Below are positions 4,277-21,930 of a DNA stretch of 64,000 bases, piece after piece; position 1 is the stretch's first letter; every line of letters begins with the position of its first letter. A model generated the notes under the pieces. It was not told where the DNA came from. It was given only the letters and a program-made list of their open reading frames with translations, and did no database searches. The position numbers and the translations under genes were made by a program. The stretch is from a virus (lineage: Duplodnaviria > Heunggongvirae > Uroviricota > Caudoviricetes). The stretch is from positions 1-64,000 of IMG/VR virus record IMGVR_UViG_3300010347_002503. One strand, written 5' to 3'.

Positions 4277-4353
4277 CGGAGTGTAATGTCAATTGGGAGA
4301 CGGCCTGATCTGGAGTCAGGAGGTTGGCGGTTCGAATCCGCCCATTCCGACCA
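4277..4353 (+). tRNA. tRNA-Pro(UGG)-like (weak D-arm, C33; possible degenerate paralog of the tRNA at 18244)
   Basis: Acceptor CGGAGTG/CATTCCG, T-arm GGCGG-TTCGAAT-CCGCC, encoded CCA; anticodon loop TCTGGAG. Confidence 0.5.
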
Positions 4354-4361
4354 TTTTGAAT

Positions 4362-4436
4362 GCACCGCTGGTGAAATGGATATCACGTTGCTCTACGGAA
4401 GCAAAATTCGGGGTTCAAATCCTCGGTGGTGTACCA
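4362..4436 (+). tRNA. tRNA-Arg(ACG)
   Basis: Full cloverleaf; anticodon arm TTGCT-CTACGGA-AGCAA; T-loop TTCAAAT; CCA encoded. Confidence 0.75.
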
Positions 4437-4598
4437 ATTTTGTTTGCCTGAAAAAGTATAGTATAGACGTGAGCAAGTAAAACATAAGAACTACCCAATC
4501 CGTATGTTCCGAATAGCATACTCCTTGACGCAATCTGAAAAGATTCCCTCTTGAGCTACGGCTTACAGAAATTCGGACAGGAACAAACAAATCTCTTT

Positions 4599-4685
4599 GG
4601 GCATGTCGCATAGTGGCTATTGCACGGGACTGTAAATCCTGCGTCTTTCGGGACTTCGGAGGTTCGAGTCCTCCCATGCCCACCA
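4599..4685 (+). tRNA. tRNA-Tyr(GUA), long variable arm
   Basis: GACTGTAAATC anticodon loop; variable-arm hairpin; T-loop TTCGAGT; CCA. Confidence 0.85.
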
Positions 4686-4707
4686 CTTTAGTCAATTACA
4701 AATGAAT

Positions 4708-4783
4708 AGGCGGGGTGCTTGGGCACGGGCAGGTCTCCAAAACCAGCTACGGGATAAGGGTTCGAATCCCCCACCGCCTGCCA
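4708..4783 (+). tRNA. tRNA-Trp(CCA)? (imperfect anticodon and T stems)
   Basis: Acceptor AGGCGGG/ACCGCCT, T-loop TTCGAAT, anticodon loop CTCCAAA, CCA. Confidence 0.4.
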
Positions 4784-4784
4784 T

Positions 4785-4860
4785 CCCAACCAAACTAATC
4801 TAGTGAAAGTGGCAGACTGAAAATCTGCAAAGCTCGGGGCAGAACCGAGGGTTGGGACCA
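4785..4860 (+). tRNA. tRNA-Phe(GAA), non-canonical (D-loop without GG, T-loop GGCAGAA)
   Basis: Acceptor CCCAACC/GGTTGGG 7 bp, perfect anticodon arm GCAGA-CTGAAAA-TCTGC, T-stem CTCGG/CCGAG, CCA. Confidence 0.45.
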
Positions 4861-4911
4861 TTTTCAACCCGAAAGTGTAAATCTTACGTTTGCCAAGTGA
4901 AAGACTTTTAT

Positions 4912-4985
4912 TGGCGATTGGTGTAATGGTAGCACACGGGTCTCTGAAACCTTTGGTGAAGGTTCGACTCCTTCATCGCTAGCCA
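4912..4985 (+). tRNA. tRNA-Gln(CUG)
   Basis: Acceptor TGGCGAT/ATCGCTA, D GTGT-AATGGTA-GCAC, loop CTCTGAA, T GAAGG-TTCGACT-CCTTC, CCA. Confidence 0.55.
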
Positions 4986-4992
4986 ATTTTAT

Positions 4993-5068
4993 TGTGGTGT
5001 AGTGTTAATTGGTAGCACGTCTGACTGTTACTCAGATAGTTCTGGTTCGAGTCCAGAGACCACAGCCA
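4993..5068 (+). tRNA. tRNA-Asn(GUU)
   Basis: Anticodon arm TCTGA-CTGTTAC-TCAGA; T-loop TTCGAGT; CCA. Confidence 0.7.
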
Positions 5069-5073
5069 TTTCA

Positions 5074-5150
5074 TTCCAGTGTAGCTCGAACGGTAGAGCG
5101 AGATGCTGTTAACATCAGGGTTGATGGTTCGAATCCATCCACTGGAGCCA
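5074..5150 (+). tRNA. tRNA-Asn(GUU) (second copy)
   Basis: Perfect acceptor TCCAGTG/CACTGGA; loop CTGTTAA; T GATGG-TTCGAAT-CCATC; CCA. Confidence 0.75.
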
Positions 5151-5199
5151 ATTTCAACCCGTCTGAAAGCAGGTAAGAACCCATAAACGAAAACTTTCT

Positions 5200-5285
5200 G
5201 CACACGTAGTCCCCTCTCGCTTCGAACGAGTTGATGCGGTAATTGGAAACTGAAACTGCGGGTTCGAATCCTGCCGTGTGTACCA
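5200..5285 (+). tRNA. atypical tRNA, 86 nt, probable Arg(UCG); D region only ~6 nt, with a 26-nt insert between the anticodon arm and the T-arm
   Basis: Perfect acceptor GCACACG/CGTGTGT, T-arm GCGGG-TTCGAAT-CCTGC, CCA; anticodon-like arm CTCG-CTTCGAA-CGAG. Confidence 0.4.
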
Positions 5286-5293
5286 CTTTTAAT

Positions 5294-5371
5294 GGCCTCG
5301 TCGTCTAGCTCAGGTTAGGACACTGCCCTCTCAAGGCGGAAAGTCGGGTTCGAATCCCGGTGAGGCTACCA
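5294..5371 (+). tRNA. tRNA-Glu(CUC)
   Basis: Anticodon arm CTGCC-CTCTCAA-GGCGG; T-loop TTCGAAT; CCA. Confidence 0.7.
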
Positions 5372-5434
5372 ATTTTTGGATTGTTTTCAGTATGGTTGGA
5401 CTATTTATAGGTTGAACTGTAATCAAAAACCTAT

Positions 5435-5932
5435 ATGTATATCATCACACCTTACGATCCATACGCTCCCAAGAAAAAGAAAACTTGGCAGGAGGAACTA
5501 TGGGAACAGCAACAAATTGCTGAAACCGAAGCTAAAATGTTGGCCGAAGCGGCTAGCAAAACACTTCCTCCAAATGCACCCGAAACTTCGGTTGCCACAG
5601 CAGGACCAATGGTGAATGCAATGGCAGGTGGTGGAGGTCAAGCAAGACCAGCATTTTATCAAAGAAACGATCTTTTGGTTGCTGGATTTACGTTTACTTC
5701 ATCGTCCAAAACTGCTCCTGCGAATATTACTTTCGTCAACACCTCCACTAATGGCGGTCCCGGTACTATGACTTATTTTTGGGATTTAGGTTCCGGAAGT
5801 TTGACTTCCACGGCAACAACTCCTCCGGTTCAAGCATATACGGTAGCAGGAACATACACCGTTACTTTGACAGTTACGGAGAATATGTATGGAACCACCA
5901 AGGTTACTATTGGAACATTTACTTTGGGATAA
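5435..5932 (+). CDS. PKD-domain protein
   Basis: C-terminal YFWDLGSGS...YTVAGTYTVTLTV matches the PKD consensus (Y.WDFGDG...Y...G.Y.V.L.V). Confidence 0.55.
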   Translation: MYIITPYDPYAPKKKKTWQEELWEQQQIAETEAKMLAEAASKTLPPNAPETSVATAGPMVNAMAGGGGQARPAFYQRNDLLVAGFTFTSSSKTAPANITFVNTSTNGGPGTMTYFWDLGSGSLTSTATTPPVQAYTVAGTYTVTLTVTENMYGTTKVTIGTFTLG

Positions 5933-5998: not shown

Positions 5999-6074
5999 GG
6001 TGATAGTGGTGTAATAGTTAGCATTCCAGTTTGTGAAGCTGGCGGTGCGGGAGCATAACCCGTCTATCACCCCA
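5999..6074 (+). tRNA. tRNA-His(GUG) with G-1; non-canonical T-loop AGCATAA and D-loop without GG
   Basis: G-1 plus acceptor GTGATAG/CTATCAC, loop TTGTGAA, T GCGGG-AGCATAA-CCCGT, CCA. Confidence 0.65.
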
Positions 6075-6082: not shown

Positions 6083-6167
6083 GTCACTGTGATGGAATCG
6101 GCAGACATGGTTGCCTCAGAAGCAGCCGCCGAAAGGCGTGGGGGTTCAAATTCCCCCAGTGACACCA
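6083..6167 (+). tRNA. tRNA-Leu(CAG), class II
   Basis: D-arm TGGAATCGGCAGACA resembles the E. coli Leu D-arm; loop CTCAGAA; variable hairpin CGCC-GAAA-GGCG; TTCAAAT; CCA. Confidence 0.8.
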
Positions 6168-6468: not shown

Positions 6469-6542
6469 GCCGAGTTGATGTAAGAGTAGCCTGCAAGTTT
6501 CGTAAACTTGATGCGTCGGAGCGTTACCGACACTCGGCTCCA
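6469..6542 (+). tRNA. tRNA-Thr(CGU), non-canonical T-loop AGCGTTA
   Basis: Perfect acceptor GCCGAGT/ACTCGGC; arm CAAGT-TTCGTAA-ACTTG; T GTCGG-AGCGTTA-CCGAC; CCA. Confidence 0.6.
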
Positions 6543-6721: not shown

Positions 6722-6796
6722 GGGATGGTCATCTAGCGGCTAGGATATCGCACTGTCACTGCGACAACGGGGGTTCGATTCCCCTCCATCCCGCCA
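6722..6796 (+). tRNA. tRNA-Asp(GUC)
   Basis: Perfect acceptor GGGATGG/CCATCCC; arm TCGCA-CTGTCAC-TGCGA; TTCGATT; CCA. Confidence 0.8.
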
Positions 6797-6798: not shown

Positions 6799-6873
6799 CA
6801 GGGTGTAGTGTAGCGGTAACACGCTCGGTTCGGGGCCGAGAGAACATGAGTTCGAATCTCATCATCCTGACCA
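6799..6873 (+). tRNA. tRNA-Pro(CGG)
   Basis: Acceptor CAGGGTG/CATCCTG; arm CTCGG-TTCGGGG-CCGAG; TTCGAAT; CCA. Confidence 0.8.
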
Positions 6874-6938: not shown

Positions 6939-7017
6939 GTCGGTATGGTGTAATTGGCTAACACATCGCACTTTCACTGCGAAGACATGGTGGGTTCAAA
7001 TCCCCCTACCGATACCA
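6939..7017 (+). tRNA. tRNA-Glu(UUC)
   Basis: D GTGT-AATTGGCTA-ACAC; arm TCGCA-CTTTCAC-TGCGA; TTCAAAT; CCA. Confidence 0.7.
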
Positions 7018-7024: not shown

Positions 7025-7110
7025 TGATCCGTGGTGTAATTGGTAACACGCCTGACTTTGACTCAGGAGACAGTTTGTTTATGTAGGTTCGACTCCTACC
7101 GGATCAGCCA
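7025..7110 (+). tRNA. tRNA-Gln(UUG) with an anomalous 15-nt unpaired variable region
   Basis: Perfect acceptor TGATCCG/CGGATCA, canonical D-arm, arm CCTGA-CTTTGAC-TCAGG, then AGACAGTTTGTTTAT before the T-arm GTAGG-TTCGACT-CCTAC; CCA. Confidence 0.6.
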
Positions 7111-7130: not shown

Positions 7131-7904
7131 ATGAAACGAAAACTTGCTTGGAGACCTGATCTTCCCGATCAGCGAGATTATACCTTTTCTCAACTTACTA
7201 TTGATCAAAATATTCCTATCACCGCCTCAGTAACCTCAAGTCTTAGGTTCTGGTGTTCTTCTGTAGAGGACCAAGGAACTCTTGGAAGTTGCGTGAGTAA
7301 TGCAGTTGTTGGGCTTTATGAGTTCAATCGAAATTTCTCTGGTTTGGGAGGCTCAAACTATCGCAATTTCAGCCGTCTGTTTAACTATTACAACTCTCGG
7401 GTACTTTCAGAAAATGTCGATGAAGATTCCGGAACTTATATTCGAGATGCCATCAAAAGTGCTAAGTTGAATGGAATTTGCTATGAATTTCAATGGCCGT
7501 ATGACGTGAATGCTTGGATGAATGAACCTCCATTAGGATGCTATCGGGAAGCCATCAATCACAAAGTTAGCAAGTATTACAGAATTGAGACGTTGGATGA
7601 AATGAGGACATCTTTGGCAAATTTTCATCCGTTTGTTTTTGGTATTGCTGTTTACGAGTCTTTTCTGAGTGATGCTGTTGCTGCCACGGGTGATGTTCCC
7701 ATGCCCTCGTCAAGGGAACAAATGTTGGGTGGTCATGCAATGCTCTGCATAGGACACGATGATATTACTCGACGTTTCTTAGTTCGTAATTCATGGGGAA
7801 AAAATTGGGGAATTCCTTACGGAAATCTTGGAGGCTATTGTTGGATTCCTTACGATTACCTCACCGATAGAAATTTGAGTGACGACTTTTGGACTGCTTA
7901 TTGA
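7131..7904 (+). CDS. papain-like cysteine peptidase (family C1)
   Basis: Catalytic triad motifs Q-x4-C (DQGTLGSCVSNA), His (GGHAMLCIGHDD) and Asn-Trp (NSWGKNWG...GY). Confidence 0.8.
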   Translation: MKRKLAWRPDLPDQRDYTFSQLTIDQNIPITASVTSSLRFWCSSVEDQGTLGSCVSNAVVGLYEFNRNFSGLGGSNYRNFSRLFNYYNSRVLSENVDEDSGTYIRDAIKSAKLNGICYEFQWPYDVNAWMNEPPLGCYREAINHKVSKYYRIETLDEMRTSLANFHPFVFGIAVYESFLSDAVAATGDVPMPSSREQMLGGHAMLCIGHDDITRRFLVRNSWGKNWGIPYGNLGGYCWIPYDYLTDRNLSDDFWTAY

Positions 7905-7916: not shown

Positions 7917-8912
7917 ATGCGTCTTTCAGAACTGATTATACATAAAATTTCTCCAGATCATCTTTTTGAAACTTACACGCTTCCTGAAATGGCCGCTGGC
8001 GATGTAAAAGAAATCTCTCAAGAAGAATGGCAAGAGGGCATTCGGTTGGCGAAAGAACACAACGAGTCTCCAGCGATTGACCCACAAATCAAAGGGTTCT
8101 ATTACATTGATGTCACTGGAAGATATCAGGTGTATTTTACGCTATGGCGTTGGAAAGATGTTGATCCAACGGTTGCTCAATGGGTAAAGAACCCCATTTA
8201 CATGGGGAACATGACCACGAATTTTTTGACTTCGGTTAAAAAAGCATTGGAAAAAATTCCTCGAAGTGTCCGTTTTCAAATCATGACGGACAAAAATCGA
8301 GAAGGTCTCATTGGAAAGAATGTCGTTCGAAGTAATGAAGACATCAAATTTACTTTTGGAAAATACCGTGGAAAATCACTTGGAGAAGTTTACCTTGAAG
8401 ACCCTCGTTACATTATTTGGCTAGTTCAAAATCAAGATCCAAAATATGAGAATACGAAACTAGGTCAGGCATTAAGAGTATTCGCCAACATGTATTACGA
8501 GGAAGTCACCAAGCAAAATCAAGAAAAATACAAGGATGTTCAATACGTCGGTGCCATCGGAGACCAATATGAAGGGGAAATTGAGGTTTACAAGATTGAA
8601 ACTAAGGAGGGACGGTCGTTCAATCGATGGGAAAAGAATCCAACTTATACAGATGCCCGTGCAGTGGACGATAAAGGAAACAAGTTCATTATCTATAATC
8701 TTGATAAAGCATTTCCAAATCATATCATAACAAAAGGAACCAAGGTCAAAATTCGTGGAAAAATTAAAGACCAAAAGGAAATCCTTGGAATCAAATTCAA
8801 TCGAATCGGTTACGTCAAGGGTATTGATCCCGGCAATGCTCAACCAAAACATCCCGAACTTCAACTTCAATCACAGCCGGAAATTCCACACCCAGAAAAC
8901 CCAGAGTTTTAA
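7917..8912 (+). CDS. protein with DUF3820/QSregVF_b-like motif (FGKYRGKSLGEV..DPRYIIWL)
   Basis: FxFGKY+GK..EV...DP.Y..WL signature found in phage replication-associated proteins. Confidence 0.55.
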   Translation: MRLSELIIHKISPDHLFETYTLPEMAAGDVKEISQEEWQEGIRLAKEHNESPAIDPQIKGFYYIDVTGRYQVYFTLWRWKDVDPTVAQWVKNPIYMGNMTTNFLTSVKKALEKIPRSVRFQIMTDKNREGLIGKNVVRSNEDIKFTFGKYRGKSLGEVYLEDPRYIIWLVQNQDPKYENTKLGQALRVFANMYYEEVTKQNQEKYKDVQYVGAIGDQYEGEIEVYKIETKEGRSFNRWEKNPTYTDARAVDDKGNKFIIYNLDKAFPNHIITKGTKVKIRGKIKDQKEILGIKFNRIGYVKGIDPGNAQPKHPELQLQSQPEIPHPENPEF

Positions 8913-8914
8913 TG

Positions 8915-8985
8915 CGGTAGTCGTTCAATAGTAAGACACGACATTGCCAATGTTGAAAGGGAGTATTGCCTCCTTACCGCACCAC
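8915..8985 (+). tRNA. tRNA-Gly(GCC), non-canonical (D-loop AATAGTAA, T-arm GGAG-TATTGC-CTCC)
   Basis: Perfect acceptor GCGGTAG/TTACCGC, arm CGACA-TTGCCAA-TGTTG, CCA; lacks the GGTTC signature. Confidence 0.5.
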
Positions 8986-8986
8986 G

Positions 8987-9062
8987 CACGCATGATGTTT
9001 AACGGCAGCATATCTGCCTTCCAAGCAGATCGTGGGGGTTCAAATCCCCCTGCGTGCTCCAA
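8987..9062 (+). tRNA. tRNA-Gly(UCC)
   Basis: Perfect acceptor GCACGCA/TGCGTGC; arm TCTGC-CTTCCAA-GCAGA; T GGGGG-TTCAAAT-CCCCC; CCA. Confidence 0.8.
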
Positions 9063-9139
9063 TTTATCCCGGTATGCGTACTGCCACACAGCCAACATCC
9101 TCGCAGTAGGTGGAATTGACTAACTGGACCGGGAGAATG

Positions 9140-9214
9140 GGTTCGAAGCTTTAATAGTGAAGCACGAAGCTTTTAACTTTGAGAAGACGGAGCATTACCG
9201 TCCGAACCCACCAA
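9140..9214 (+). tRNA. tRNA-Lys(UUU), non-canonical T-loop AGCATTA
   Basis: Acceptor GGGTTCG/CGAACCC; D GCTT-TAATAGTGA-AGC; arm CGAAG-CTTTTAA-CTTTG; T GACGG-AGCATTA-CCGTC; CCA. Confidence 0.6.
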
Positions 9215-9225
9215 TTATTTTATTC

Positions 9226-9303
9226 GCCATGTAGCTCATCATTGGAAGAGCAGCGTCTTGATAAGGCGAAGGTGGCAGGTTCGAGTCCTGCCATGGCGAC
9301 CAT
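9226..9303 (+). tRNA. tRNA-Ile(GAU)
   Basis: Perfect acceptor CGCCATG/CATGGCG; D GCTC-ATCATTGGAA-GAGC; loop TTGATAA; TTCGAGT; CCA. Confidence 0.75.
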
Positions 9304-9408: not shown

Positions 9409-10098
9409 ATGTTTTGTTTCTTTCATGTTACGAAAACGGCAGGAATGTCGCTTACGAAAATAGTGACAACGTGTCTTTCTCGGTCTTTTTTATACGAAAA
9501 CCACGTCGTTCTTTCAAATAATCGAACTCGATATCGTTCTCGTCCGTTGGTACAATCTCCGGACACCGATGCTGCCAAATATTTTACGGGGCATTTGGTC
9601 TATTACGGAATGCACGAAGATATCCAAAGACCGGGAAAGTACATTCTTTTTTTACGAGATCCCGTTCAGCGTATTATTTCTCTCTACCATCATGACAACA
9701 TTGAGACAGTAAGGAATGAAAGACCATTTCCGAATTTTACCGATTGGATAAAAGCGAATCTGGATAAAACCATGATTCATGGTATAACATCAGGATCGAA
9801 ATTTCCTGCAACATTAGATGGAGCAATTAAGATTTTGGAAAGGACAGCATTCATTGGTCTTCAAGAAACTTTTGCATTAGATGTTCAACAACTTTTCTAT
9901 CGGGATATTATTATTCCACACGAAAATGTAACTGAAAAACGAAAAAAAAAATATTTCGGAATAAAACTCAATGAAGTGAATAAATCGGATTATGATTTAA
10001 TGCAAATTGTTCTTGCTGATGATATCAAATTACATAAATATGCTTTGAAACTCAGAGCAGATGGTCACAACGAAGGATTTCGTTTGCCATTATTTTAA
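9409..10098 (+). CDS. carbohydrate sulfotransferase-like protein (Sulfotransfer_2/HS6ST-like)
   Basis: 5'-PSB-like motif FFHVTKTAGMSL and 3'-PB-like motif LRDPVQRIISLY. Confidence 0.55.
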   Translation: MFCFFHVTKTAGMSLTKIVTTCLSRSFLYENHVVLSNNRTRYRSRPLVQSPDTDAAKYFTGHLVYYGMHEDIQRPGKYILFLRDPVQRIISLYHHDNIETVRNERPFPNFTDWIKANLDKTMIHGITSGSKFPATLDGAIKILERTAFIGLQETFALDVQQLFYRDIIIPHENVTEKRKKKYFGIKLNEVNKSDYDLMQIVLADDIKLHKYALKLRADGHNEGFRLPLF

Positions 10099-10196: not shown

Positions 10197-10275
10197 GCAA
10201 GTGAAGCCATAGAGGACGGGCATCTGGCTTTTAACCAGACTATTCGTGTGGGTTCAAGTCCCACCACTTGCACCA
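10197..10275 (+). tRNA. tRNA-Lys(UUU) (canonical copy)
   Basis: Perfect acceptor GCAAGTG/CACTTGC; arm TCTGG-CTTTTAA-CCAGA; T GTGGG-TTCAAGT-CCCAC; CCA. Confidence 0.7.
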
Positions 10276-10279
10276 ATTT

Positions 10280-10314
10280 AGAGGAGTTGGGTTCAAATCC
10301 CAATATCCTCTCCA
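10280..10314 (+). ncRNA. tRNA acceptor/T-arm minihelix (top half of a tRNA only)
   Basis: AGAGGA-G-[TTGGG-TTCAAAT-CCCAA]-TA-TCCTCT-CCA; no D or anticodon arms. Confidence 0.35.
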
Positions 10315-10320: not shown

Positions 10321-10416
10321 GGGGAGGTAGCTCAGAGGTTAGAGCGTCGAGCCAATGGTTGATTATATCTTCCAGTAACCCGAAGGTCGCAGGTTCAAAT
10401 CCTGCCCTCCCTGCCA
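10321..10416 (+). tRNA. tRNA with ~19-nt internal insertion (anticodon unresolved; possible intron or giant variable arm)
   Basis: Perfect acceptor GGGGAGG/CCTCCCT, canonical D GCTC-AGAGGTTA-GAGC and T GCAGG-TTCAAAT-CCTGC, CCA; 42 nt between D and T arms. Confidence 0.5.
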
Positions 10417-11470: not shown

Positions 11471-11509
11471 ACCGCTGTGCCAATCTAATAAAACAGCGGT
11501 ATCTTTATT
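11471..11509 (+). terminator. putative terminator hairpin
   Basis: ACCGCTGT...ACAGCGGT 8-bp stem followed by ATCTTTATT. Confidence 0.35.
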
Positions 11510-11582
11510 CCCTCTTGGTGTAATGGCAGCACAGAAGCCTTTGGAGCTTTTAGTTGGGGTTCAAATCCCTGAGAGGGAGCCA
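11509..11582 (+). tRNA. tRNA-Gln(UUG)
   Basis: Perfect acceptor TCCCTCT/AGAGGGA; D GTGT-AATGGCA-GCAC; loop CTTTGGA; TTCAAAT; CCA. Confidence 0.75.
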
Positions 11583-11675: not shown

Positions 11676-11685
11676 CTTTATATAT

Positions 11686-11762
11686 CAGGGTGTAGTTCAG
11701 CTTGGTAGAACGCAACACTGGGGGTGTTGAGGTCGTGGGTTCGAATCCCGCCATCCTGACCA
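11686..11762 (+). tRNA. tRNA-Pro(GGG)
   Basis: Acceptor CAGGGTG/CATCCTG (same as Pro-CGG); arm CAACA-CTGGGGG-TGTTG; TTCGAAT; CCA. Confidence 0.8.
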
Positions 11763-11772
11763 TTTTTTCTGA

Positions 11773-12326: not shown

Positions 12327-12851
12327 ATGAACCTGAAATATCCCAAAGAAATGTTGATCCCGCTTGTCAGGGGAAGCGTGAGTATATCCGACGTTATGAG
12401 AAAACTCGGCATTCGACGCTCTGGGGGAAGTCATTCTCACCTTTCCCGAAAACTGAAAGAGTATGAGATTGATACTTCCCATTTCACTGGCAAGACAGCG
12501 GCGAAAGGGAGACCTTCGCCTCGGAGAAAGCATTGGACCGAAATCTTAATTTTACGCACATCTGGAAAACGTCAACACGCCATCCAATTAAGAAGAGCGT
12601 TAATCGAGAGTGGTGTTCCATATCAATGCTCTGAATGTAGATCGGAGCCCGTATGGAGAAACAAAGAACTCCGATTTCAAGTTGACCATTTGAATAAAAA
12701 CTGGTTGGATGACAGGAGAGAAAATTTGAAGTTTCTTTGCCCGAATTGTCATTCACAAACGCCGGGATATAATGGTTCAAAAGGATATGCCGACATAATG
12801 GATTACAATCGGTATCAGCGAGAAAAGAGAAAACAAAAAATGGCACCGTAG
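12327..12851 (+). CDS. HNH endonuclease
   Basis: CxxC...H-N...CxxC core: CSEC...VDHLNKNWLDDRRENLKFLCPNCH. Confidence 0.75.
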   Translation: MNLKYPKEMLIPLVRGSVSISDVMRKLGIRRSGGSHSHLSRKLKEYEIDTSHFTGKTAAKGRPSPRRKHWTEILILRTSGKRQHAIQLRRALIESGVPYQCSECRSEPVWRNKELRFQVDHLNKNWLDDRRENLKFLCPNCHSQTPGYNGSKGYADIMDYNRYQREKRKQKMAP

Positions 12852-12919
12852 CCCAATTGGAAGATGGCAATACGCTTAGAACGTATGTAGTGCAGGTTCG
12901 AATCCTGTCGGTGCTACCA
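12842..12919 (+). tRNA. class-I tRNA with anticodon UAG (Leu codon CUA) but a short 5-nt variable loop
   Basis: Acceptor GGCACCG/CGGTGCT; perfect arm ATACG-CTTAGAA-CGTAT; T GCAGG-TTCGAAT-CCTGT; A73; CCA. Confidence 0.65.
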
Positions 12920-13530: not shown

Positions 13531-13533
13531 TTT

Positions 13534-14115
13534 ATGAGTATTCGACAAAAGGCCAACAAAATCAAAAAAGAGCGTTGCCGCACGTTGATTGCGGTACTCG
13601 AAAACCCCAAAACCATTGAAAATATTGGTTCAGTCATTCGAAACGTTGATGCCCTTGGGGTGAGTAAGTTATACGTAATTGACGGCTACAAATTATTACC
13701 GGATAATTGGCAGGATATGCGTGAGCGGAGAAGCTTAAATAAAATCTCTGCTTCCGCCGTCAAATGGACTTATATCCATCCTTTCAAAACCACAGCGGAA
13801 TGTATCGAACATTTGAAAAGAAAGCATTTCTTGTCGGTAGTAACATCGCCGCACGTAAAAGGTAAAAAGAACGTTTCCCTCGATGAGGCCGATTTCACAC
13901 AGCACCATCTGGCGGTCTGGTTTGGAAACGAAAGTCATGGGATTTCCGACGAAGCCGTTCAAGCTGCGGAATTCTGTGTGAGCATTCCGATGCACGGTAT
14001 CATTGAAAGCTTCAATCTGGGTACATGCTCGGGTATTGTTCTATATGAGGTCACCAAACAGCGAAGACTTTTCCGAAAAAATAAACAGCAGTGCCGAACG
14101 GCTGTAATGGACTAA
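13534..14115 (+). CDS. SpoU/TrmH-family RNA 2'-O-ribose methyltransferase
   Basis: SPOUT motifs ENIGSVIRNVDALGV, VWFGNESHGIS and IPMHGIIESFNLGTCSGIVLYEV. Confidence 0.8.
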   Translation: MSIRQKANKIKKERCRTLIAVLENPKTIENIGSVIRNVDALGVSKLYVIDGYKLLPDNWQDMRERRSLNKISASAVKWTYIHPFKTTAECIEHLKRKHFLSVVTSPHVKGKKNVSLDEADFTQHHLAVWFGNESHGISDEAVQAAEFCVSIPMHGIIESFNLGTCSGIVLYEVTKQRRLFRKNKQQCRTAVMD

Positions 14116-14328: not shown

Positions 14329-14366
14329 AGTTTCTCATTTCTCTCCATCCAGAATGAGAAACGAAT

Positions 14367-14442
14367 GCTCTCGTAGCTCAATTGGAAGAGTCAGTGCGTC
14401 CTAAGCACTCGGTTGCAGGTTCAAATCCTGCCGGGAGCACCA
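14367..14442 (+). tRNA. tRNA-Arg(CCU)
   Basis: Arm AGTGC-GTCCTAA-GCACT; T GCAGG-TTCAAAT-CCTGC; CCA. Confidence 0.8.
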
Positions 14443-14540
14443 ATTTCGTATGGAAAAGTATCGGAAACTATAACGTTCAAGTAACGGGTGTTTTATGATT
14501 AACGGTGCCGCTCTAACTTCGGAGGCTACTTATTCAAACT

Positions 14541-15002
14541 GTGGCCATAGGTGGATTTTTATTGACAAGTACGGTCCATTTTGCCATACTTGTTCTCTGT
14601 ATAAAAGAATCAGAAAAGAATAGTATGAGAAAGTGGATCAAACAACTGCCGGAAATGAAGAACTGCGGAGTAATAGCGGTGGCGATCATTGCGGAAGTCT
14701 CGGTTGAGGCTGCCGCTGAGGCTATAGGTAAAAAGGGGGCTACATTCACAAAAGACCTTGTCAAGGGTCTCAGAAAATTTGGATTCAAATGTCCAGACCG
14801 TTGTGTTCGAGTTAAATCAAATCAACCCCTTCCCAAATTGGCAATCGGCCATTTGTCCGACCCAAAACGAAAAAACGGCTGGCATTGGATTGTGATCGAT
14901 GGAGACAAAATCTGGGACGGTTTGTTTGGCGATCCCGATGGTAAACCGGTGTATTGGGAATCCGGGTGGAAAATCACATCGTATCTTCCTGTTACGAAAT
15001 GA
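14541..15002 (+). CDS. C39-like (papain-fold) peptidase domain protein
   Basis: Cys motif KNCGVIAVAII and His motif NGWHWIVIDG, resembling Peptidase_C39_2; N-terminal hydrophobic segment. Confidence 0.5.
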   Translation: MAIGGFLLTSTVHFAILVLCIKESEKNSMRKWIKQLPEMKNCGVIAVAIIAEVSVEAAAEAIGKKGATFTKDLVKGLRKFGFKCPDRCVRVKSNQPLPKLAIGHLSDPKRKNGWHWIVIDGDKIWDGLFGDPDGKPVYWESGWKITSYLPVTK

Positions 15003-15013: not shown

Positions 15014-15181
15014 ATGGAAAATGATATTATATCAAAAACGTTTTACTGCCCCAGATGTCAAGCAGTCTTAAAAAAGAAACGACCATCGGACAAATTTCTG
15101 GTGGTAGATAAAGAACAGATTGTTCGGTTATTTTGTCCGTGTGGCTACTATCGGGATGAGAAGGTAAACGAAACCTCTTGA
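15014..15181 (+). CDS. Zn-ribbon mini-protein
   Basis: CPRC...CPCG. Confidence 0.4.
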   Translation: MENDIISKTFYCPRCQAVLKKKRPSDKFLVVDKEQIVRLFCPCGYYRDEKVNETS

Positions 15182-15214
15182 CAAATCTATTGGTTTTGAT
15201 ATAATTGCGGGTAT

Positions 15215-15310
15215 GGTAGGGTGGCAGAGTTTGGCTTATCGCATCCGACTTGAAATCGGAAGTCCCGGCAAAAACCGGGACCGGGGGTTCAAATCCCTCC
15301 CCTACCGCCA
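15215..15310 (+). tRNA. tRNA-Ser(UGA), class II
   Basis: Arm TCCGA-CTTGAAA-TCGGA; variable hairpin CCCGG...CCGGG; TTCAAAT; CCA. Confidence 0.85.
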
Positions 15311-15398: not shown

Positions 15399-15490
15399 GG
15401 AAGCGTGGCAGAGTCCGGTCTATTGCGACACTTTGCTAAAGTGTTGGGGTGTTACAGCCCCCGCTGGTTCGAATCCAGCCGCTTCCGCCA
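15399..15490 (+). tRNA. tRNA-Ser(GCU), class II
   Basis: Arm ACACT-TTGCTAA-AGTGT; variable hairpin GGGG...CCCC; TTCGAAT; CCA. Confidence 0.85.
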
Positions 15491-15839: not shown

Positions 15840-16041
15840 ATTTATGCCTTATTGTTCATCATGCGGATCATTGATTCCAGAAGGACAAGGAAACAGTTGT
15901 TCGATGTGTTATGGAGATCCGTGGTATGGCCGGGATGGATATGCCCTGCGAGATTTAGAGCGTCAGATACACGAAGAACAGATTCGTCAACAGGAAATGG
16001 AAGAATATTGGCAGAATCAAGAATCGAATAAGGGCGACTAG
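15826..16041 (+). CDS. Zn-ribbon mini-protein
   Basis: CSSCGS...CSMC. Confidence 0.4.
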   Translation: MEEIEFMPYCSSCGSLIPEGQGNSCSMCYGDPWYGRDGYALRDLERQIHEEQIRQQEMEEYWQNQESNKGD

Positions 16042-16105
16042 TTTATCGGAAGAATGCGTCATTCACACTGACGAGAGACAGGTTCGATTCCTGTGTTGCC
16101 CACCA
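16032..16105 (+). tRNA. tRNA-Val(CAC)
   Basis: Arm CGTCA-TTCACAC-TGACG; T ACAGG-TTCGATT-CCTGT; CCA. Confidence 0.8.
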
Positions 16106-18197: not shown

Positions 18198-18225
18198 CTT
18201 GACTTTTTACTCAAAACATGTATAG
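18198..18225 (+). promoter_or_regulatory. sigma70-like early promoter TTGACT-N16-TATAGT ahead of a tRNA operon
   Basis: TTGACTTTTTACTCAAAACATGTATAGT, about 20 nt upstream of the tRNA at 18244. Confidence 0.5.
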
Positions 18226-18243
18226 TTATGTGCGTAATGATTA

Positions 18244-18321
18244 TCGGAGTGTAGCACAGCTTGGCGAGTGCGTCTGCTTTGGGAGCAGAAGGTCGTAGGT
18301 TCAAATCCTATCACTCCGACC
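18244..18321 (+). tRNA. tRNA-Pro(UGG)
   Basis: D GCAC-AGCTTGGCGA-GTGC; arm TCTGC-TTTGGGA-GCAGA; TTCAAAT; CCA. Confidence 0.8.
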
Positions 18322-18322
18322 A

Positions 18323-18400
18323 TGCGATTGTGGCACAGCGGCGACTGCGCCTCGTTTACACCGAGGTATCACCACAGGTTCGAGTCCTGTCAATCGCACC
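18323..18400 (+). tRNA. tRNA-Val(UAC)
   Basis: Perfect acceptor GCGATTG/CAATCGC; arm CCTCG-TTTACAC-CGAGG; TTCGAGT; CCA. Confidence 0.7.
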
Positions 18401-18407
18401 AATTTTA

Positions 18408-18481
18408 TGGGGCCGTCATTCAACGGGAGGATACAACTCTGGCAGAGTTGAGATAGGGGTTCGATTCCCCTCGGCTCCACC
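18408..18481 (+). tRNA. tRNA-Ala(GGC)
   Basis: Acceptor GGGGCCG/CGGCTCC (G3:U70); arm CAACT-CTGGCAG-AGTTG; TTCGATT; CCA. Confidence 0.75.
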
Positions 18482-18490
18482 AATTTAGTT

Positions 18491-18978: not shown

Positions 18979-19326
18979 ATGAGAAAACTATTGACCACTC
19001 TCGTTCTGGTTCTCACCATCGCCATTACTGCTTTTGGTGAAGACATTTGGTTTACTTGGGATAAAAACCCCGCCAACGAGCTTATTGGCACCTATCGATT
19101 AGAATATATCAAACTTCCAGTGATTACCAATTGGACTTTATTAAGTAACATTCCCGGTACCACTAATGTTGCTGTTGTAAAAGGTGTCCAAGGCGGTTTT
19201 ACTTACAAATTCAGAATATTTGCTCAGAATTCAAAAGGTATTGGAACCAATCTTTCCAATATCATTGAAATTCCAACTAATGCACCAACAACAGTAAGCA
19301 ATTTTAACCTTACTACGCCTCGCTAA
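18979..19326 (+). CDS. secreted FN3-like domain protein (paralog of 18491)
   Basis: Signal peptide; FTWDKNP...YRLEY; preceded by CTATTTATAG. Confidence 0.5.
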   Translation: MRKLLTTLVLVLTIAITAFGEDIWFTWDKNPANELIGTYRLEYIKLPVITNWTLLSNIPGTTNVAVVKGVQGGFTYKFRIFAQNSKGIGTNLSNIIEIPTNAPTTVSNFNLTTPR

Positions 19327-19338
19327 TGCTAATCATCT

Positions 19339-19761
19339 TTGTTCAACTACTATTCTATGGTACATGATTTACCGTTTGGTAAATTCATAGATACCATGAG
19401 AATACAGCATAAATACTTAAGAAATCGTCACTTCCGATTGAAAAATTGGAAGCGCATTCGTAATACCGAACATCCATTCGAGACTGACATGCCTTGGTTT
19501 TTCTATAATTCGACGGAATGTTACTCAGCGGAAAAACAAATTGCCAATCACTTTGAGAGGATTACCAATCATGCTCGTGGCCTAGAAAGTGGTTTTAACC
19601 ATGTAGCACTGAACTACAAAAACGCTCCTTCCGATTATCGCCGTCGTTGTAATGCACGAGATAAGGCAAAGGTTCGTGCGGCGATGCAAAAAATTAACAA
19701 TGGACAATACGAGACCGAACTTCCGGTTTTCAAACAGGATGCGGGTTGGGACTATTGGTAA
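19339..19761 (+). CDS. hypothetical protein
   Basis: 140-aa ORF. Confidence 0.45.
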   Translation: MFNYYSMVHDLPFGKFIDTMRIQHKYLRNRHFRLKNWKRIRNTEHPFETDMPWFFYNSTECYSAEKQIANHFERITNHARGLESGFNHVALNYKNAPSDYRRRCNARDKAKVRAAMQKINNGQYETELPVFKQDAGWDYW

Positions 19762-19836: not shown

Positions 19837-19842
19837 GTGAAA

Positions 19843-19917
19843 GGGGTCATCCGTCTAACGGTAAGACGCCAGCTTTGCAAGCTGGAAATAGGGGTTCGAT
19901 TCCCCTTGGCTCCACCA
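19843..19917 (+). tRNA. tRNA-Ala(UGC)
   Basis: Acceptor GGGGTCA/TGGCTCC; arm CCAGC-TTTGCAA-GCTGG; TTCGATT; CCA. Confidence 0.8.
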
Positions 19918-19923
19918 ATTTAT

Positions 19924-20002
19924 AGCAGGTTGGAGAAGTCTGGCCTATCTCGCAACGCTCATAACGTTGAGAACCTTGGTTCGAATCCAAGACCTGCAAC
20001 CA
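19924..20002 (+). tRNA. tRNA-Met(CAU) (elongator or Ile2-type; A1:A72)
   Basis: D GAGA-AGTCTGGCCTA-TCTC; arm CAACG-CTCATAA-CGTTG; TTCGAAT; CCA. Confidence 0.7.
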
Positions 20003-20167
20003 ATTTTGTGAAGTTTGAATGCCAAGGTAAGAAGCAATATGAGTCTCAGGATGAAGCCAATCGGGAAGCATATCGGTTGATGGTTGAATCCCTGTCGAAC
20101 CAACCAAGTGTTCGGCCTTACAAGTGCAAATATTGCAAGAAATGGCATTTGACTTCTTTTAGATAAT

Positions 20168-20251
20168 GCTGCTGTGGTGGAATGGCAGACACGCCAGCTT
20201 GAGGTGCTGGTGGGGAAACCCGTGAAGGTTCAAATCCTTTCAGCAGCACCA
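20168..20251 (+). tRNA. tRNA-Leu(GAG), class II
   Basis: Perfect acceptor GCTGCTG/CAGCAGC; arm CCAGC-TTGAGGT-GCTGG; variable hairpin GGG-GAAA-CCC; TTCAAAT; CCA. Confidence 0.8.
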
Positions 20252-20256
20252 ATTTT

Positions 20257-20330
20257 GCCGGTGTAGTATAAAAGTATTACACTGCTTTGGTAAAGCAGAG
20301 AAGAGGGAGCGTTACCCTTCACTGGCTCCA
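20257..20330 (+). tRNA. tRNA-Thr(GGU), non-canonical T-loop AGCGTTA
   Basis: Arm CTGCT-TTGGTAA-AGCAG; T GAGGG-AGCGTTA-CCCTT; CCA. Confidence 0.6.
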
Positions 20331-20343
20331 TTTTTCGGAATTG

Positions 20344-20378
20344 GCCTTCATATTTATACGATATGAAGGCATTTTTTT
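20344..20378 (+). terminator. rho-independent terminator whose 3' arm contains the ATG of the downstream ORF
   Basis: GCCTTCATAT-TTATACG-ATATGAAGGC followed by ATTTTTTT; ATG 20363 lies in the stem. Confidence 0.55.
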
Positions 20379-20665
20379 ATGGTTTGACTCAATTCGTTCG
20401 GGATGATACGGGAGCATTATCATCCATGAGATTATTATTTTTGGCATGGGGATTTGCCGCTTTGGTAATTTGGGTAATAATCTGTTTGAAAACAGGTGCT
20501 ATTGCAGCGTTGCCGTGGTCTTTGACTTCGTTCATCATTAGTTTGGTAGGTGGAAAGGTTCTTCAAAGTTGGACCGAGAGCATTGGTCAACCTATAACCC
20601 CATCAGTATCACAACCGAAGATTGCTGTTGACAATACACCGAGAAACGATATAATGATGCCCTGA
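20363..20665 (+). CDS. small membrane protein (2 TM)
   Basis: 100-aa ORF with two hydrophobic helices; start is sequestered in the terminator hairpin. Confidence 0.4.
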   Translation: MKAFFYGLTQFVRDDTGALSSMRLLFLAWGFAALVIWVIICLKTGAIAALPWSLTSFIISLVGGKVLQSWTESIGQPITPSVSQPKIAVDNTPRNDIMMP

Positions 20666-21018
20666 TCTTTGAAATTTTGTCGTAAGCGAGTTCACGCTGG
20701 AAGGTTTGCCACAAGGCATTCACGCACCAGAGGAAGTTCGATACTCTACAGCAGCGGATTGGGAGGGCGCATTCTGAAAAGATCGCCCGAGAACACCACA
20801 ACGTAAGAGCAACCCGAAAAAGGCAAGGGTAGTGCTGCCCGTTATAAAGCCAAGGTTGGGGCACTCCGAATTACAATTTCGGAGCACGTCAAATGACGTG
20901 AGACAAATGTGAACATAAAACAGAATATCGGCTACGGCTGCGACAATATAACTCGATGTAGGAACTTAGTTCTGTAGATATCGAGTACAGGAGCGAGATT
21001 AAATACCTCGCTCCATCT

Positions 21019-21092
21019 GGGGTCATCGTTCAACGGTAGGATAAGTCACTCGCACTGACTAGATAGGGGTTCGATTCCCCTTGGCTCCACCA
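21019..21092 (+). tRNA. tRNA-Ala(CGC)
   Basis: Acceptor GGGGTCA/TGGCTCC; arm AGTCA-CTCGCAC-TGACT; TTCGATT; CCA. Confidence 0.8.
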
Positions 21093-21459
21093 GCTTAAAA
21101 GTTTTGCGTAGTCGCCGGATTGGAGTATTCTTTAACGGCTTGGGCGAAAGTGCCGCATCCCATGGGAAATAATAGCACTGACTACGTATTGGGGGGGTGC
21201 CAGAGAATTGCTGATCAGATGCTCAGATTATTTTGGGAATCCGACCAGCAATTTTTTTCTTGCTTTCTGGGCACTATTCTATTATATGTATGGACAGTTA
21301 AGTGTGCAGTTTAATTCTCGTAGTATGGATACACGAGATCGTCATGGACAAAAGTAGGGTGTTAAGTTCACCTCGAATACCGTGACAGGTGCCGTCACCG
21401 TAATGAAATGACGGCTTTGACGATGGGACAAGATTCTCATTTTACACTTAACTTATTAT

Positions 21460-21546
21460 GGCGGATTGCCAGAACGGTAATGGGCCTGCTTGGAAGGCAG
21501 AGGCACGGTTATCCGTGAACAGGTTCGACTCCTGTATCCGCCGCCA
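21460..21546 (+). tRNA. tRNA-Ser(GGA), class II
   Basis: Perfect acceptor GGCGGAT/ATCCGCC; loop TTGGAAG; variable hairpin CACGG-TTAT-CCGTG; TTCGACT; CCA. Confidence 0.8.
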
Positions 21547-21612
21547 ATTTTAAGATAATAGGTTGAACGTCAATATAAAAAATGTAAGACCTAAGTAATT
21601 TCTGAAACAATT

Positions 21613-21837
21613 ATGAGCACAAAAGCAAAACGAATTGGTGACGTTCAACGGGTTATTAACAAGAACCCGCATTGGGCCGCATTGTCTGAATACAATCATA
21701 TTCGGATTCAGTTTCCTGATGGCTGTGAACGAAGTCTTTTATTGACTGACAACGAATTGAAGCGAGCACTTGAAAGGGCAGACAAGAATCCAGAGGATTT
21801 GCCAAAGGTTTCTTGGCTTCGAGACATTCTCGATTAA
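21613..21837 (+). CDS. hypothetical protein
   Basis: 74-aa ORF between two Ser tRNAs. Confidence 0.45.
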   Translation: MSTKAKRIGDVQRVINKNPHWAALSEYNHIRIQFPDGCERSLLLTDNELKRALERADKNPEDLPKVSWLRDILD

Positions 21838-21839
21838 AC

Positions 21840-21930
21840 GGTAGGTTGGCCGAGTCTGGCTTATGGCACCAGTTTCGAAAACTGGAGTGGAGTAAACCCA
21901 CCGAGGGTTCGAATCCCTCACCTACCGCCA
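21840..21930 (+). tRNA. tRNA-Ser(CGA), class II
   Basis: Perfect acceptor GGTAGGT/ACCTACC; arm CCAGT-TTCGAAA-ACTGG; variable hairpin; TTCGAAT; CCA. Confidence 0.85.

Follow-up and report, generated by a model that had tools for sequence, protein, structure and literature searches.

A tRNA gene island in a phage genome

The first 64,000 nucleotides of the IMG/VR virus record IMGVR_UViG_3300010347_002503 (Caudoviricetes; the window below) contain a tRNA gene island at positions 4277..21930. The island spans 17.65 kb, lies on the + strand only and holds 45 tRNA-type genes and one 39-nt acceptor/T minihelix (Table 1; genes are designated by their first nucleotide where needed). Its endpoints, the start of the first gene and the end of the last, are exactly those given in a preliminary description of this DNA, and since protein genes bound it on both sides, the island lies wholly inside the window. 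In our view, held at a probability of about three in four, this is a genuine tRNA island of an uncultivated large tailed phage infecting bacteria, which supplies host-independent tRNAs. The array itself is one more large example of a known phenomenon; the unexpected part is the number of conserved non-canonical genes.

Default ARAGORN, run on the 64-kb window, found 37 tRNA genes, all of them + strand genes inside 4277-21930, with no call elsewhere. The Rfam tRNA model RF00005 (gathering score 29 bits) gave 37 matches at or above the gathering score in a whole-window scan; laxer filters added Ser-GGA 21460 (46.4 bits) and Thr-CGU 6469 (39.8 bits), bringing the RF00005 total to 39. The union of default ARAGORN and RF00005 amounts to 41 genes, and relaxed ARAGORN supports Thr-CGU, Lys-UUU 9139 and Thr-GGU 20257. 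A top-half scan, defined by a 7/7 acceptor stem, a 5/5 T stem and a CCA end, recovered all known genes except the irregular Trp 4708 and Gly-GCC 8914. It exposed five further elements, namely Phe-GAA, Lys-CUU, Arg-UCG, Arg-UCU and the minihelix. The four genes among them lie beyond the union of the tools and required manual or custom-model evidence. For Phe-GAA and Lys-CUU the minimum-free-energy fold is a perfect cloverleaf with a z-score of about -2.9. The Phe gene listed in the preliminary description is reported by no tool and was found by the top-half scan.

The 3' CCA is encoded by all 45 genes. A 7-nt anticodon loop with U33, a purine at position 37 and a 5-bp stem is present in 44 of them, the exception being 10321-10416. 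The RF00005 gathering score is passed by 39 of the 45, with Trp 4708, Phe 4785, Arg 5200, Cys 6593, Lys-CUU 10898 and Arg 11584 below it, so the doubt raised in advance, that most of the predicted genes might fall below covariance-model thresholds, does not apply. The earlier figure of at least 45 tRNA genes in about 18 kb is reached only when the non-canonical genes are counted. The earlier amino-acid tally agrees overall with ours, except that there are three Lys genes instead of two and that the possible fourth Leu gene is the Thr-derived tRNA-like gene.

Table 1. Features of the tRNA island. ARAGORN, default settings; Rfam, score on RF00005; z, fold z-score; R1, custom covariance model (see text).
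Feature	Position	Strand	Evidence
tRNA-Pro(UGG)	4277..4353	+	ARAGORN; Rfam 38.2 bits
tRNA-Arg(ACG)	4362..4436	+	ARAGORN; Rfam 51.4 bits
tRNA-Tyr(GUA), long variable arm	4599..4685	+	ARAGORN; Rfam 57.6 bits
tRNA-Trp(CCA), doubtful, irregular: 3-bp T stem, 4-nt D loop, 6-bp anticodon stem	4708..4783	+	ARAGORN only
tRNA-Phe(GAA), class C: T loop GGCAGAA, 3-nt D loop, anticodon loop CUGAAAA	4785..4860	+	top-half scan; z = -2.86; Rfam 20.6 bits; ARAGORN none
tRNA-Gln(CUG)	4912..4985	+	ARAGORN; Rfam 58.3 bits
tRNA-Asn(GUU)	4993..5068	+	ARAGORN; Rfam 50.7 bits
tRNA-Asn(GUU)	5075..5150	+	ARAGORN; Rfam 58.2 bits
tRNA-Arg(UCG), D-arm-less, anticodon loop CUUCGAA	5200..5285	+	top-half scan; R1 71.0 bits; no RF00005 match
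tRNA-Glu(CUC)	5294..5371	+	ARAGORN; Rfam 47.4 bits
tRNA-His(GUG), encoded G-1, class B: T loop AGCATAA, D loop AATAGTTA	6000..6074	+	ARAGORN; Rfam 46.8 bits; L006 ortholog
tRNA-Leu(CAG), long variable arm	6083..6167	+	ARAGORN; Rfam 44.4 bits; register from top-half scan
tRNA-Thr(UGU), 11-nt D loop, 9-nt variable loop	6178..6259	+	ARAGORN; Rfam 57.2 bits
tRNA-Thr(CGU), class B: T loop AGCGTTA	6469..6542	+	relaxed ARAGORN; Rfam 39.8 bits; 2 compensatory pairs vs L006
tRNA-Cys(GCA), class B: T loop AGCGTAA	6593..6667	+	ARAGORN; RF00005 below gathering score; 1 compensatory pair vs L006
tRNA-Asp(GUC)	6722..6796	+	ARAGORN; Rfam 58.8 bits
tRNA-Pro(CGG)	6799..6873	+	ARAGORN; Rfam 63.2 bits
tRNA-Glu(UUC)	6939..7017	+	ARAGORN; Rfam 55.3 bits
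tRNA-Gln(UUG), long variable arm (15 nt, 4-bp stem), U1-A72, G73	7025..7110	+	ARAGORN; Rfam 63.2 bits
331-aa protein: ExoX-like_C motif (FTFGKYRG), C-terminal OB fold	7917..8912	+	
tRNA-Gly(GCC), degenerate T arm (6-nt loop)	8914..8984	+	Rfam 30.5 bits; z = -2.60
tRNA-Gly(UCC)	8986..9061	+	ARAGORN; Rfam 40.1 bits
tRNA-Lys(UUU), class B: T loop AGCATTA	9139..9213	+	Rfam 42.4 bits; relaxed ARAGORN
tRNA-Ile(GAU)	9225..9302	+	ARAGORN; Rfam 54.7 bits
tRNA-Lys(UUU)	10197..10275	+	ARAGORN; Rfam 49.4 bits
Acceptor/T-arm minihelix, 39 nt, CCA end, tRNA top half only	10276..10314	+	top-half scan; z = -3.95; not conserved in L006
Thr-derived tRNA-like gene, 20-nt insertion; acceptor, D and T arms normal	10321..10416	+	Rfam 55 bits
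tRNA-Lys(CUU), class C: T loop GGCAGCA, anticodon loop CUCUUAA	10898..10971	+	top-half scan; z = -2.91; no Rfam or ARAGORN match
tRNA-Gln(UUG)	11509..11582	+	ARAGORN; Rfam 57.5 bits
tRNA-Arg(UCU), D-arm-less, anticodon loop CUUCUAA	11584..11675	+	R1 71.7 bits; Rfam tRNA-Sec model 27.5 bits only
tRNA-Pro(GGG); 99%-identity tract with L006 begins here	11686..11762	+	ARAGORN; Rfam 61.8 bits
HNH endonuclease gene; last 10 nt overlap tRNA-Leu(UAG)	12327..12851	+	phrog_10822 E = 7e-51
tRNA-Leu(UAG), 78 nt, no long variable arm (5-nt variable loop), A73	12842..12919	+	ARAGORN; Rfam 59.4 bits
SpoU/TrmH-superfamily RNA 2'-O-methyltransferase	13534..14115	+	PF00588 E = 7e-27
tRNA-Arg(CCU)	14367..14442	+	ARAGORN; Rfam 59.6 bits
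Sigma-70-type promoter, 12/12 (TTGACA, 16 nt, TG-TATAAT), 9 nt upstream of tRNA-Ser(UGA)	15178..15205	+	
tRNA-Ser(UGA)	15215..15310	+	ARAGORN; Rfam 49.5 bits
tRNA-Ser(GCU)	15399..15490	+	ARAGORN; Rfam 52.8 bits
tRNA-Val(CAC)	16032..16105	+	ARAGORN; Rfam 55 bits
tRNA-Val(GAC), class B: T loop AGCGTAA	16695..16768	+	ARAGORN; Rfam 50.2 bits
Sigma-70-like promoter, 10/12, upstream of Pro-Val-Ala cluster	18199..18226	+	
tRNA-Pro(UGG)	18245..18322	+	ARAGORN; Rfam 66.7 bits
tRNA-Val(UAC)	18324..18401	+	ARAGORN; Rfam 55.8 bits
tRNA-Ala(GGC)	18409..18482	+	ARAGORN; Rfam 55.2 bits
tRNA-Ala(UGC), 83% identical to Ala(CGC)	19843..19917	+	ARAGORN; Rfam 61.1 bits
tRNA-Met(CAU), A1/A72 unpaired; candidate initiator, elongator or Ile2	19924..20002	+	ARAGORN; Rfam 50.6 bits
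tRNA-Leu(GAG), long variable arm	20168..20251	+	ARAGORN; Rfam 55.9 bits
tRNA-Thr(GGU), class B: T loop AGCGTTA	20257..20330	+	Rfam 48 bits; relaxed ARAGORN
Intrinsic-terminator-like hairpin (11 bp + T run) after Thr(GGU)	20344..20370	+	
tRNA-Ala(CGC)	21019..21092	+	ARAGORN; Rfam 56.8 bits
tRNA-Ser(GGA)	21460..21546	+	ARAGORN; Rfam 46.4 bits
tRNA-Ser(CGA)	21840..21930	+	ARAGORN; Rfam 55 bits

The 45 dense, same-strand genes are linked to phage hallmark genes, which makes the island a phage tRNA gene array. Genes for PhoH (23890-24648), a baseplate wedge protein (34627-36606), a primase (55968-56924) and an SbcCD-like fusion follow downstream on the same strand. The baseplate protein shares 42% identity with its counterpart in Microcystis phage Mel-JY01, 40% with that of a 484-kb uncultured phage and 38% with those of Flavobacterium phages. 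A megablast search of the island against 50,697 phage records gave no nucleotide-level relative, only a tRNA-Pro match: tRNA-Pro(UGG) 18245 is 91% identical over 58 nt (window 18252-18309) to a tRNA-Pro of Xanthomonas phage RiverRider. A tblastn search with a 561-aa open reading frame (ORF) against phage GenBank records found no match. Judged by these comparisons, the source is a tailed phage without a close cultured relative. Exact-protein look-up located the island in several metagenome assemblies, of which three independent ones (L003, L004 and L005; L-numbers denote the loci compared) are 100% identical over it and have the same junctions.

The alternative to a phage island is a cellular array or an assembly chimera. 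Bacterial L-arrays, such as that of Anabaena PCC 7120, are similarly long, non-periodic and mobile, reach 43 tRNA genes and are often flanked by a homing endonuclease (PMC8421152); moreover, one homolog of the ExoX-like protein encoded in the island is filed in a Chitinophagia metagenome-assembled genome. Unlike the L-arrays, the island sits in a phage genome and not in a chromosome or plasmid. It adjoins, without a break, 42 kb of same-strand phage structural and replication genes, its junctions recur in the independent assemblies, and its relatives are viral contigs with holin and tail genes. We consider a cellular or chimeric origin highly improbable.

Arginine tRNA genes without a D arm

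When all genes were parsed, about 15 of the 45 departed from the standard cloverleaf, in several recurring ways. The near-complete repertoire claimed in the preliminary description is real, but the structural oddity of about a third of its genes had gone unnoticed. The best-supported non-canonical group, on the evidence of its alignments, is a D-arm-less Arg/Ile class, since it recurs in unrelated viral contigs with strong covariation. In its window members, Arg-UCG 5200 and Arg-UCU 11584, only 8 nt separate the acceptor stem from the anticodon stem, and 26-32 nt follow the anticodon arm. The architecture consists of a 7-bp acceptor stem, a 3-bp helix extending the 5-bp anticodon stem, a 3' connector with GG and a canonical T arm, with no D stem-loop. 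A layout scan of the collected loci added two Arg genes, one UCU and one CCU, both in L104, an unrelated contig from IMG/VR; they stand there at normal tRNA spacing between called tRNAs. Searching IMG/VR with the shared anticodon arm returned mostly ordinary Arg tRNAs and about nine with the D-arm-less layout. RNAalifold, given 10 sequences, predicted the acceptor stem, the 3-bp flanking helix, the anticodon stem and the T stem, no D arm, and compensatory changes in 16 of 20 pairs.

A custom covariance model, R1, was built on 10 sequences that included both window copies. Over 1.8 Mb of loci the members scored 51-93 bits and ordinary tRNAs at most 46 bits. The window copies reached 71.7 (11584) and 71.0 bits (5200), a match by construction as both are training sequences; independent support comes from seven non-training sequences, which scored 51-82 bits. 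R1 further detected members whose anticodon arms differ: Arg-UCG, Arg-CCU, Arg-CCG and two Ile-UAU. In an alignment of 17 sequences, fitted to R1 in a way that favours structure, 96.8% of cells were paired and two-sided changes occurred in 18 of 20 pairs; the independent RNAalifold result agrees. None of 500 shuffles reached the observed values, and slid controls were less than 49% paired. A GUAR motif and a GG motif are kept in the connector 3' of the anticodon arm. A transposed D arm, with nt 8-11 pairing with the connector, was considered and dropped since it showed no consistent covariation; a connector with a single-stranded GG is the preferred reading.

Some mitochondrial tRNAs, such as metazoan mt-tRNA-Ser (PMC7609411), also keep the acceptor, anticodon and T arms and lack the D stem-loop. 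The phage genes differ from these in the 3-bp helix extending the anticodon stem, in a 14-27-nt 3' connector with a D-loop-like GG, in a fully canonical T arm (TTCRANT) and in decoding Arg or Ile. We predict that phages use this class as decoders of Arg (UCU, CCU, UCG, CCG) and Ile (UAU). If its members are charged and used, they would be a bacterial-world counterpart of the truncated mitochondrial tRNAs and a candidate orthogonal scaffold.

Rewired loops and exchanged variable arms

Six genes (His, Thr-CGU, Cys, Lys-UUU 9139, Val-GAC and Thr-GGU) form class B, in which the T loop AGCRTWA replaces TTCRANT and the D loop reads AATAGTR with a single G. Four ortholog pairs with L006, a divergent relative, carry 18 differences, which comprise 3 compensatory pairs, 4 G-U-type changes and 8 loop positions; none breaks a pair. 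Gly-GCC 8914 is a damaged class B derivative, and its orthologs in L006 and L094 retain the class B T loop. Phe-GAA and Lys-CUU make up class C (T loop GGCAGMA), a type that is found in L006 too, in a Thr-UGU gene. Other T-loop variants occur in L093, L094 and L095 (TGAAAAT, ATCGATA and ATCGTAT). Apart from gene 10321, the non-canonical genes have conventional anticodon loops.

The long variable arm has been swapped between tRNA classes: Gln-UUG 7025 has one and Leu-UAG 12842 does not. In 7025-7110 it is a stem-loop, combined with 7/5 acceptor/T geometry. The gene has U1-A72, G73 and a D arm in common with both ordinary Gln genes of the island, and so looks like a Gln tRNA that gained an arm. 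A long variable arm together with G73 is read by seryl-tRNA synthetase in class II tRNAs and allo-tRNAs (PMC7609411), and Gln-UUG 7025 resembles these in both features. An allo-tRNA or tRNA-Sec-like identity was rejected, since the geometry of this gene is 7/5 and not 8/4, 9/3 or 8/5, and since Trp 4708 and Cys 6593 scored only 23.7 and 24.6 bits on the tRNA-Sec model (gathering score 47).

The L006 ortholog of Gln-UUG 7025-7110, at L006 2106-2193, has the anticodon UUA and a fully compensated anticodon stem. This anticodon is ochre-suppressor-like and represents the same single change as in E. coli supB. The ortholog has, however, one acceptor mismatch, U at position 37 and a 3' end TCA instead of CCA. 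In the window no suppressor or stop-codon recoding is supported; there is no stop anticodon, and code 11 reads long ORFs without interruption. Among the stop codons of the window TAA is the most frequent (37 of 55 ORFs), and the UUA anticodon is present only in L006.

Long-arm tRNAs outside Leu, Ser and Tyr recur in relatives (L009, L011, L012, L038, L054, L055, L058, L059 and L072-L074), where they comprise Ile-UAU (all copies 91-94 nt), Trp (6 of 9 long), Asn, Lys, Arg, Val, Met and Thr genes. Short-arm Leu genes, Leu-CAA of 74 nt and Leu-GAG of 78 nt, were seen in L093, a 69%-identity relative that carries 17 tRNA genes within 4.4 kb (1-4455).

A Thr-derived gene with a masked anticodon

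At the centre of the anticodon arm, where RF00005 has 11 nucleotides, gene 10321-10416 has 31 nt. It carries a 20-nt insertion following nt 31, which base-pairs with the anticodon loop (CCAGUAA), so that the arm becomes a single long hairpin. The gene has a Thr-type 3' half, and the seven nucleotides before the 3' stem strand are CCAGUAA here and CUGGUAA in the L006 ortholog. This ortholog shows 3 compensatory double changes, all within the extended arm. The simplest description is a Thr tRNA (AGU; GGU in L006) with a 20-21-nt insertion.

Intron-containing pre-tRNAs of archaea and eukaryotes offer a parallel, in that the inserted nucleotides pair with the anticodon loop and compensatory changes maintain this pairing despite the change from AGU to GGU. 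The insertion differs from them in its position (after nt 31, not 37/38), in the lack of a bulge-helix-bulge motif and in the bacterial host. A bulge-helix-bulge (two 3-nt bulges, 4 bp apart) was rejected by inspection, which showed a symmetric CC/AA internal loop followed by a continuous helix, and the intron mode of ARAGORN gave only implausible calls. With no such motif and a bacterial host, no known splicing route fits gene 10321; for a group I intron the insertion is far too short. An IMG/VR search with the exact D-arm/T-arm pattern of the gene gave no match. The motif of its 3' half retrieved ordinary Thr tRNAs and two 3' halves (L101 and L103), which are not homologs of the insertion. 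These two are isolated Thr tRNA 3' halves with CCA beside protein genes and resemble phage attachment-site duplications; one of them is identical over 33 nt to the 3' half of 10321-10416.

The non-canonical genes could also be products of decay, that is, pseudogenes or recombination scars beside a working repertoire of about 30-35 genes. Trp 4708 and Gly-GCC 8914 do look degenerate, the minihelix 10276-10314 is remnant-like and not conserved in L006, and the L006 copies of two odd genes, the orthologs of 7025 and 10321, end in TCA instead of CCA. However, all odd window genes keep a 6-7-bp acceptor stem and CCA; the 5-bp T stem is intact except in Trp 4708 and Gly-GCC 8914, and only 10321 lacks a proper anticodon loop. 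Ortholog substitutions never break a pair, the extended arm of gene 10321 carries its 3 compensatory changes, and the D-arm-less architecture covaries over 17 sequences from many contigs. Decay as the general explanation is unlikely. As the odd architectures are intact in relatives, their genes are probably working tRNAs and not debris.

Our tentative proposal, to which we give somewhat less than even odds, is that the island holds undescribed tRNA architectures that are invisible to standard annotation: the D-arm-less class, rewired T and D loops, the exchange of variable arms and the masked-anticodon Thr gene. Literature searches of incomplete coverage, and hence weak evidence of novelty, returned no description of long-arm phage tRNAs and none of a D-arm-less phage tRNA architecture. 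Default tools recover 37-39 of the 45 genes and miss the sole Phe decoder, one Lys and two Arg genes. This means that a tRNA complement taken from routine annotation would wrongly report amino acids as missing. Should these genes encode functional tRNAs, the size of phage tRNA repertoires is systematically underestimated, and minimal or orthogonal tRNA scaffolds would have a natural source in phages, where tRNA-targeting immunity has possibly shaped them.

Decoding capacity and codon usage

The 44 readable genes carry 40 anticodons, which cover all 20 amino acids and decode 58 of the 61 sense codons. Trp, Phe, Cys and two Arg codons are served by non-canonical genes. No island tRNA among the 44 readable anticodons decodes UUA, UUG or AUA, the island has only one CAU tRNA, and no aminoacyl-tRNA synthetase was found among the window ORFs scanned. 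Since UUA, UUG and AUA have no decoder, the phage must still draw on the host for some of its commonest codons. The preliminary description had spoken of reprogramming of, or independence from, the host tRNA pool. The near-complete repertoire stands, but independence was overstated: the phage is independent only in part, and its own codon preferences are not simply reflected in the set.

The complement was also described as far larger than that of most phages, which is true, though there are precedents. Xanthomonas phage XacN1 carries 56 tRNA genes, with 29 per terminal repeat (PMC5852040), and the numbers in freshwater jumbophages range over 0-62 (PMC13573597). Like these and the T4/T5 arrays, the island has dozens of same-strand tRNAs amid small ORFs and homing endonucleases, covers all 20 amino acids and has translation-related enzymes nearby. 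It differs from XacN1, where the genes of the repeat occur twice, in that its approximately 45 different genes are single-copy, and from known phage arrays in an unusually high share of structurally non-canonical genes.

Most likely, the island tRNAs would keep phage translation going whatever the state of the host tRNA pool. The problem with the pool could be a codon-usage mismatch, or a loss of tRNAs through host shut-off or a tRNA-cleaving defence. We infer that the tRNAs are expressed, aminoacylated and used in translation. Phage tRNA arrays have been explained by codon compensation or by the replacement of depleted or cleaved tRNAs (PMC5852040, PMC7824862, PMC10264068, PMC11464382, PMC13573597), and three of these studies treat them as a counter to tRNA depletion or cleavage (PMC7824862, PMC10264068, PMC11464382).

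Under pure codon compensation, the only role of the island would be to provide tRNAs for codons used more by the phage than by its host. This classical explanation was statistically shown for XacN1 (PMC5852040). The phage, at about 40% GC, has a marked preference for A/T-ending codons, as would fit. However, in the 55 window ORFs (16,380 codons) the complete isoacceptor sets also decode phage-rare codons, such as CGG (9% of Arg), CUG (8% of Leu) and GCG (13% of Ala), and the commonest Leu codons of the phage, UUA and UUG, have no decoder. With near-complete isoacceptor sets that include decoders of phage-rare codons, pool replacement fits better than fine tuning, and we find codon compensation alone rather unlikely.

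It is possible, although doubtful, that the non-canonical scaffolds were selected as a counter-defence, evading host tRNases or toxins, or dependence on host modification enzymes, while staying ribosome-competent. Fifteen of the 45 genes are non-canonical yet structurally conserved, and members of the D-arm-less family, which read AGA, AGG, CGR and AUA, turn up in viral contigs that are unrelated. Evasion of anticodon nucleases and of PARIS by phage tRNAs has been documented (PMC10264068, PMC11464382). On the other hand, published escape variants mostly alter the anticodon loop, whereas the anticodon loops of the island are conventional, and the odd structures could also reflect relaxed constraint in a redundant gene set. 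If it is charged and used, the D-arm-less class would make it possible to ask whether immunity directed at tRNAs acts on their architecture and not only on anticodon loops.

Several observations weigh against a working, host-independent island. The undecoded UUA and UUG make up 45% of the phage Leu codons and AUA 17% of its Ile codons. Trp 4708 is without thermodynamic or covariance-model support (z = +0.67; no RF00005 match), the T arm of Gly-GCC 8914 is damaged relative to its orthologs, and gene 10321 is unable to decode as encoded, its loop being sequestered in the hairpin. Promoter-like sites are not in excess overall (44 against 38 +/- 6 in shuffled sequence). The near-identical strains are uninformative, and most of the comparative evidence comes from the one divergent relative, L006.

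Organisation and mosaicism

The genes are arranged in tight clusters separated by small ORFs, and 17 of the 44 intergenic spacers are no longer than 15 nt. In a promoter scan scored against the sigma-70 consensus, two sites matched at 12/12 positions (one of them 9 nt before Ser-UGA) and two more at 11/12. There are two strong terminator-like hairpins in the island. Transcription of at least some clusters appears to start at sigma-70-type promoters.

The three Ala genes are 79-83% mutually identical and Ser-UGA and Ser-CGA 75%, a sign that genes were duplicated and then changed their anticodons. Over 11684-14682, L006 and the window share 99% identity, in a tract that begins at Pro-GGG and has the HNH and SpoU genes inside. 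Upstream of 11684 identity falls to 66-92%, L006 is rearranged, and equivalent positions are taken by different tRNA genes; the island is mosaic. In our reading, the island grows and changes through local duplications in which the anticodon shifts and through recombination with related phages, which the embedded HNH homing-type endonuclease would probably aid. T4 SegB and the homing endonuclease beside the Anabaena tRNA array are precedents for such exchange (PMC8421152). The likeness to the T4 region lies in an HNH gene amid tRNA genes and in a high-identity tract in the otherwise diverged L006; the difference is that SegB is a GIY-YIG enzyme. The mosaic tract and the HNH gene would fit homing-endonuclease-assisted exchange.

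Protein genes in and around the island

Both enzymes that the preliminary description had placed among the tRNA genes were found again. The HNH protein matches phrog_10822 and shows the DH...N...CPNCH motif in its translation; with Pfam PF01844 it scores 20.4 bits, just under the cut-off of 21.4. The SpoU/TrmH protein scores 94.6 bits on PF00588 (cut-off 29.7), which makes it, from its profile match, a secure SPOUT methyltransferase. As a TrmH equivalog it falls short, the best NCBIfam match being NF008295 at 80.5 bits with a cut-off of 227, and the RlmB, TrmJ and TrmL models also match weakly. The enzyme may act on the island tRNAs. Used as a query in IMG/VR, it retrieved no relatives.

Homologs of the ExoX-like protein (7917..8912) gave 414 matching contigs and are common in freshwater metagenomes. 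Among the relatives' loci of at least 8 kb, 14 of 26 carry at least 5 tRNAs, while none of 13 control loci carries any. The link between this protein and tRNA clusters is thus frequent, not strict. One such relative, L009, has 50 tRNAs in 20.8 kb, and L012, a distant relative, has 17 tRNAs and a transfer-messenger RNA (19240-19620; tag peptide AETIEAYDFAPEMDVVAVA).

Between the tRNA clusters there are also genes for a papain-family (C1-like) peptidase (7131-7904), a sulfotransferase-like protein (9409-10098) and a PKD-domain protein (5435-5932), which have no obvious tie to tRNA biology. Just upstream of the island lie genes for an SPFH/Band-7 protein (1554-2747) and a calcineurin-like phosphoesterase (2807-3721); metallophosphoesterases are also found near the arrays in L011 and L012. 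The contigs on which the SPFH gene was found are short and stop close to the start of the window. Independent assemblies of this phage, L096 and L097, break about 740 nt upstream of the SPFH gene (window about 1-750), which may mark a genome terminus or a repeat. An HPr-family phosphotransferase system phosphocarrier is encoded just downstream of the island (22489-22719; TIGR01003, 75 bits, cut-off 47.9). Further downstream there are an Hsp20 chaperone gene (27638-28126), a 2011-aa ORF in the structural module (39754-45789) and the SbcCD-like gene, which encodes a fused Metallophos and SMC protein of 1075 aa (57009-60236).

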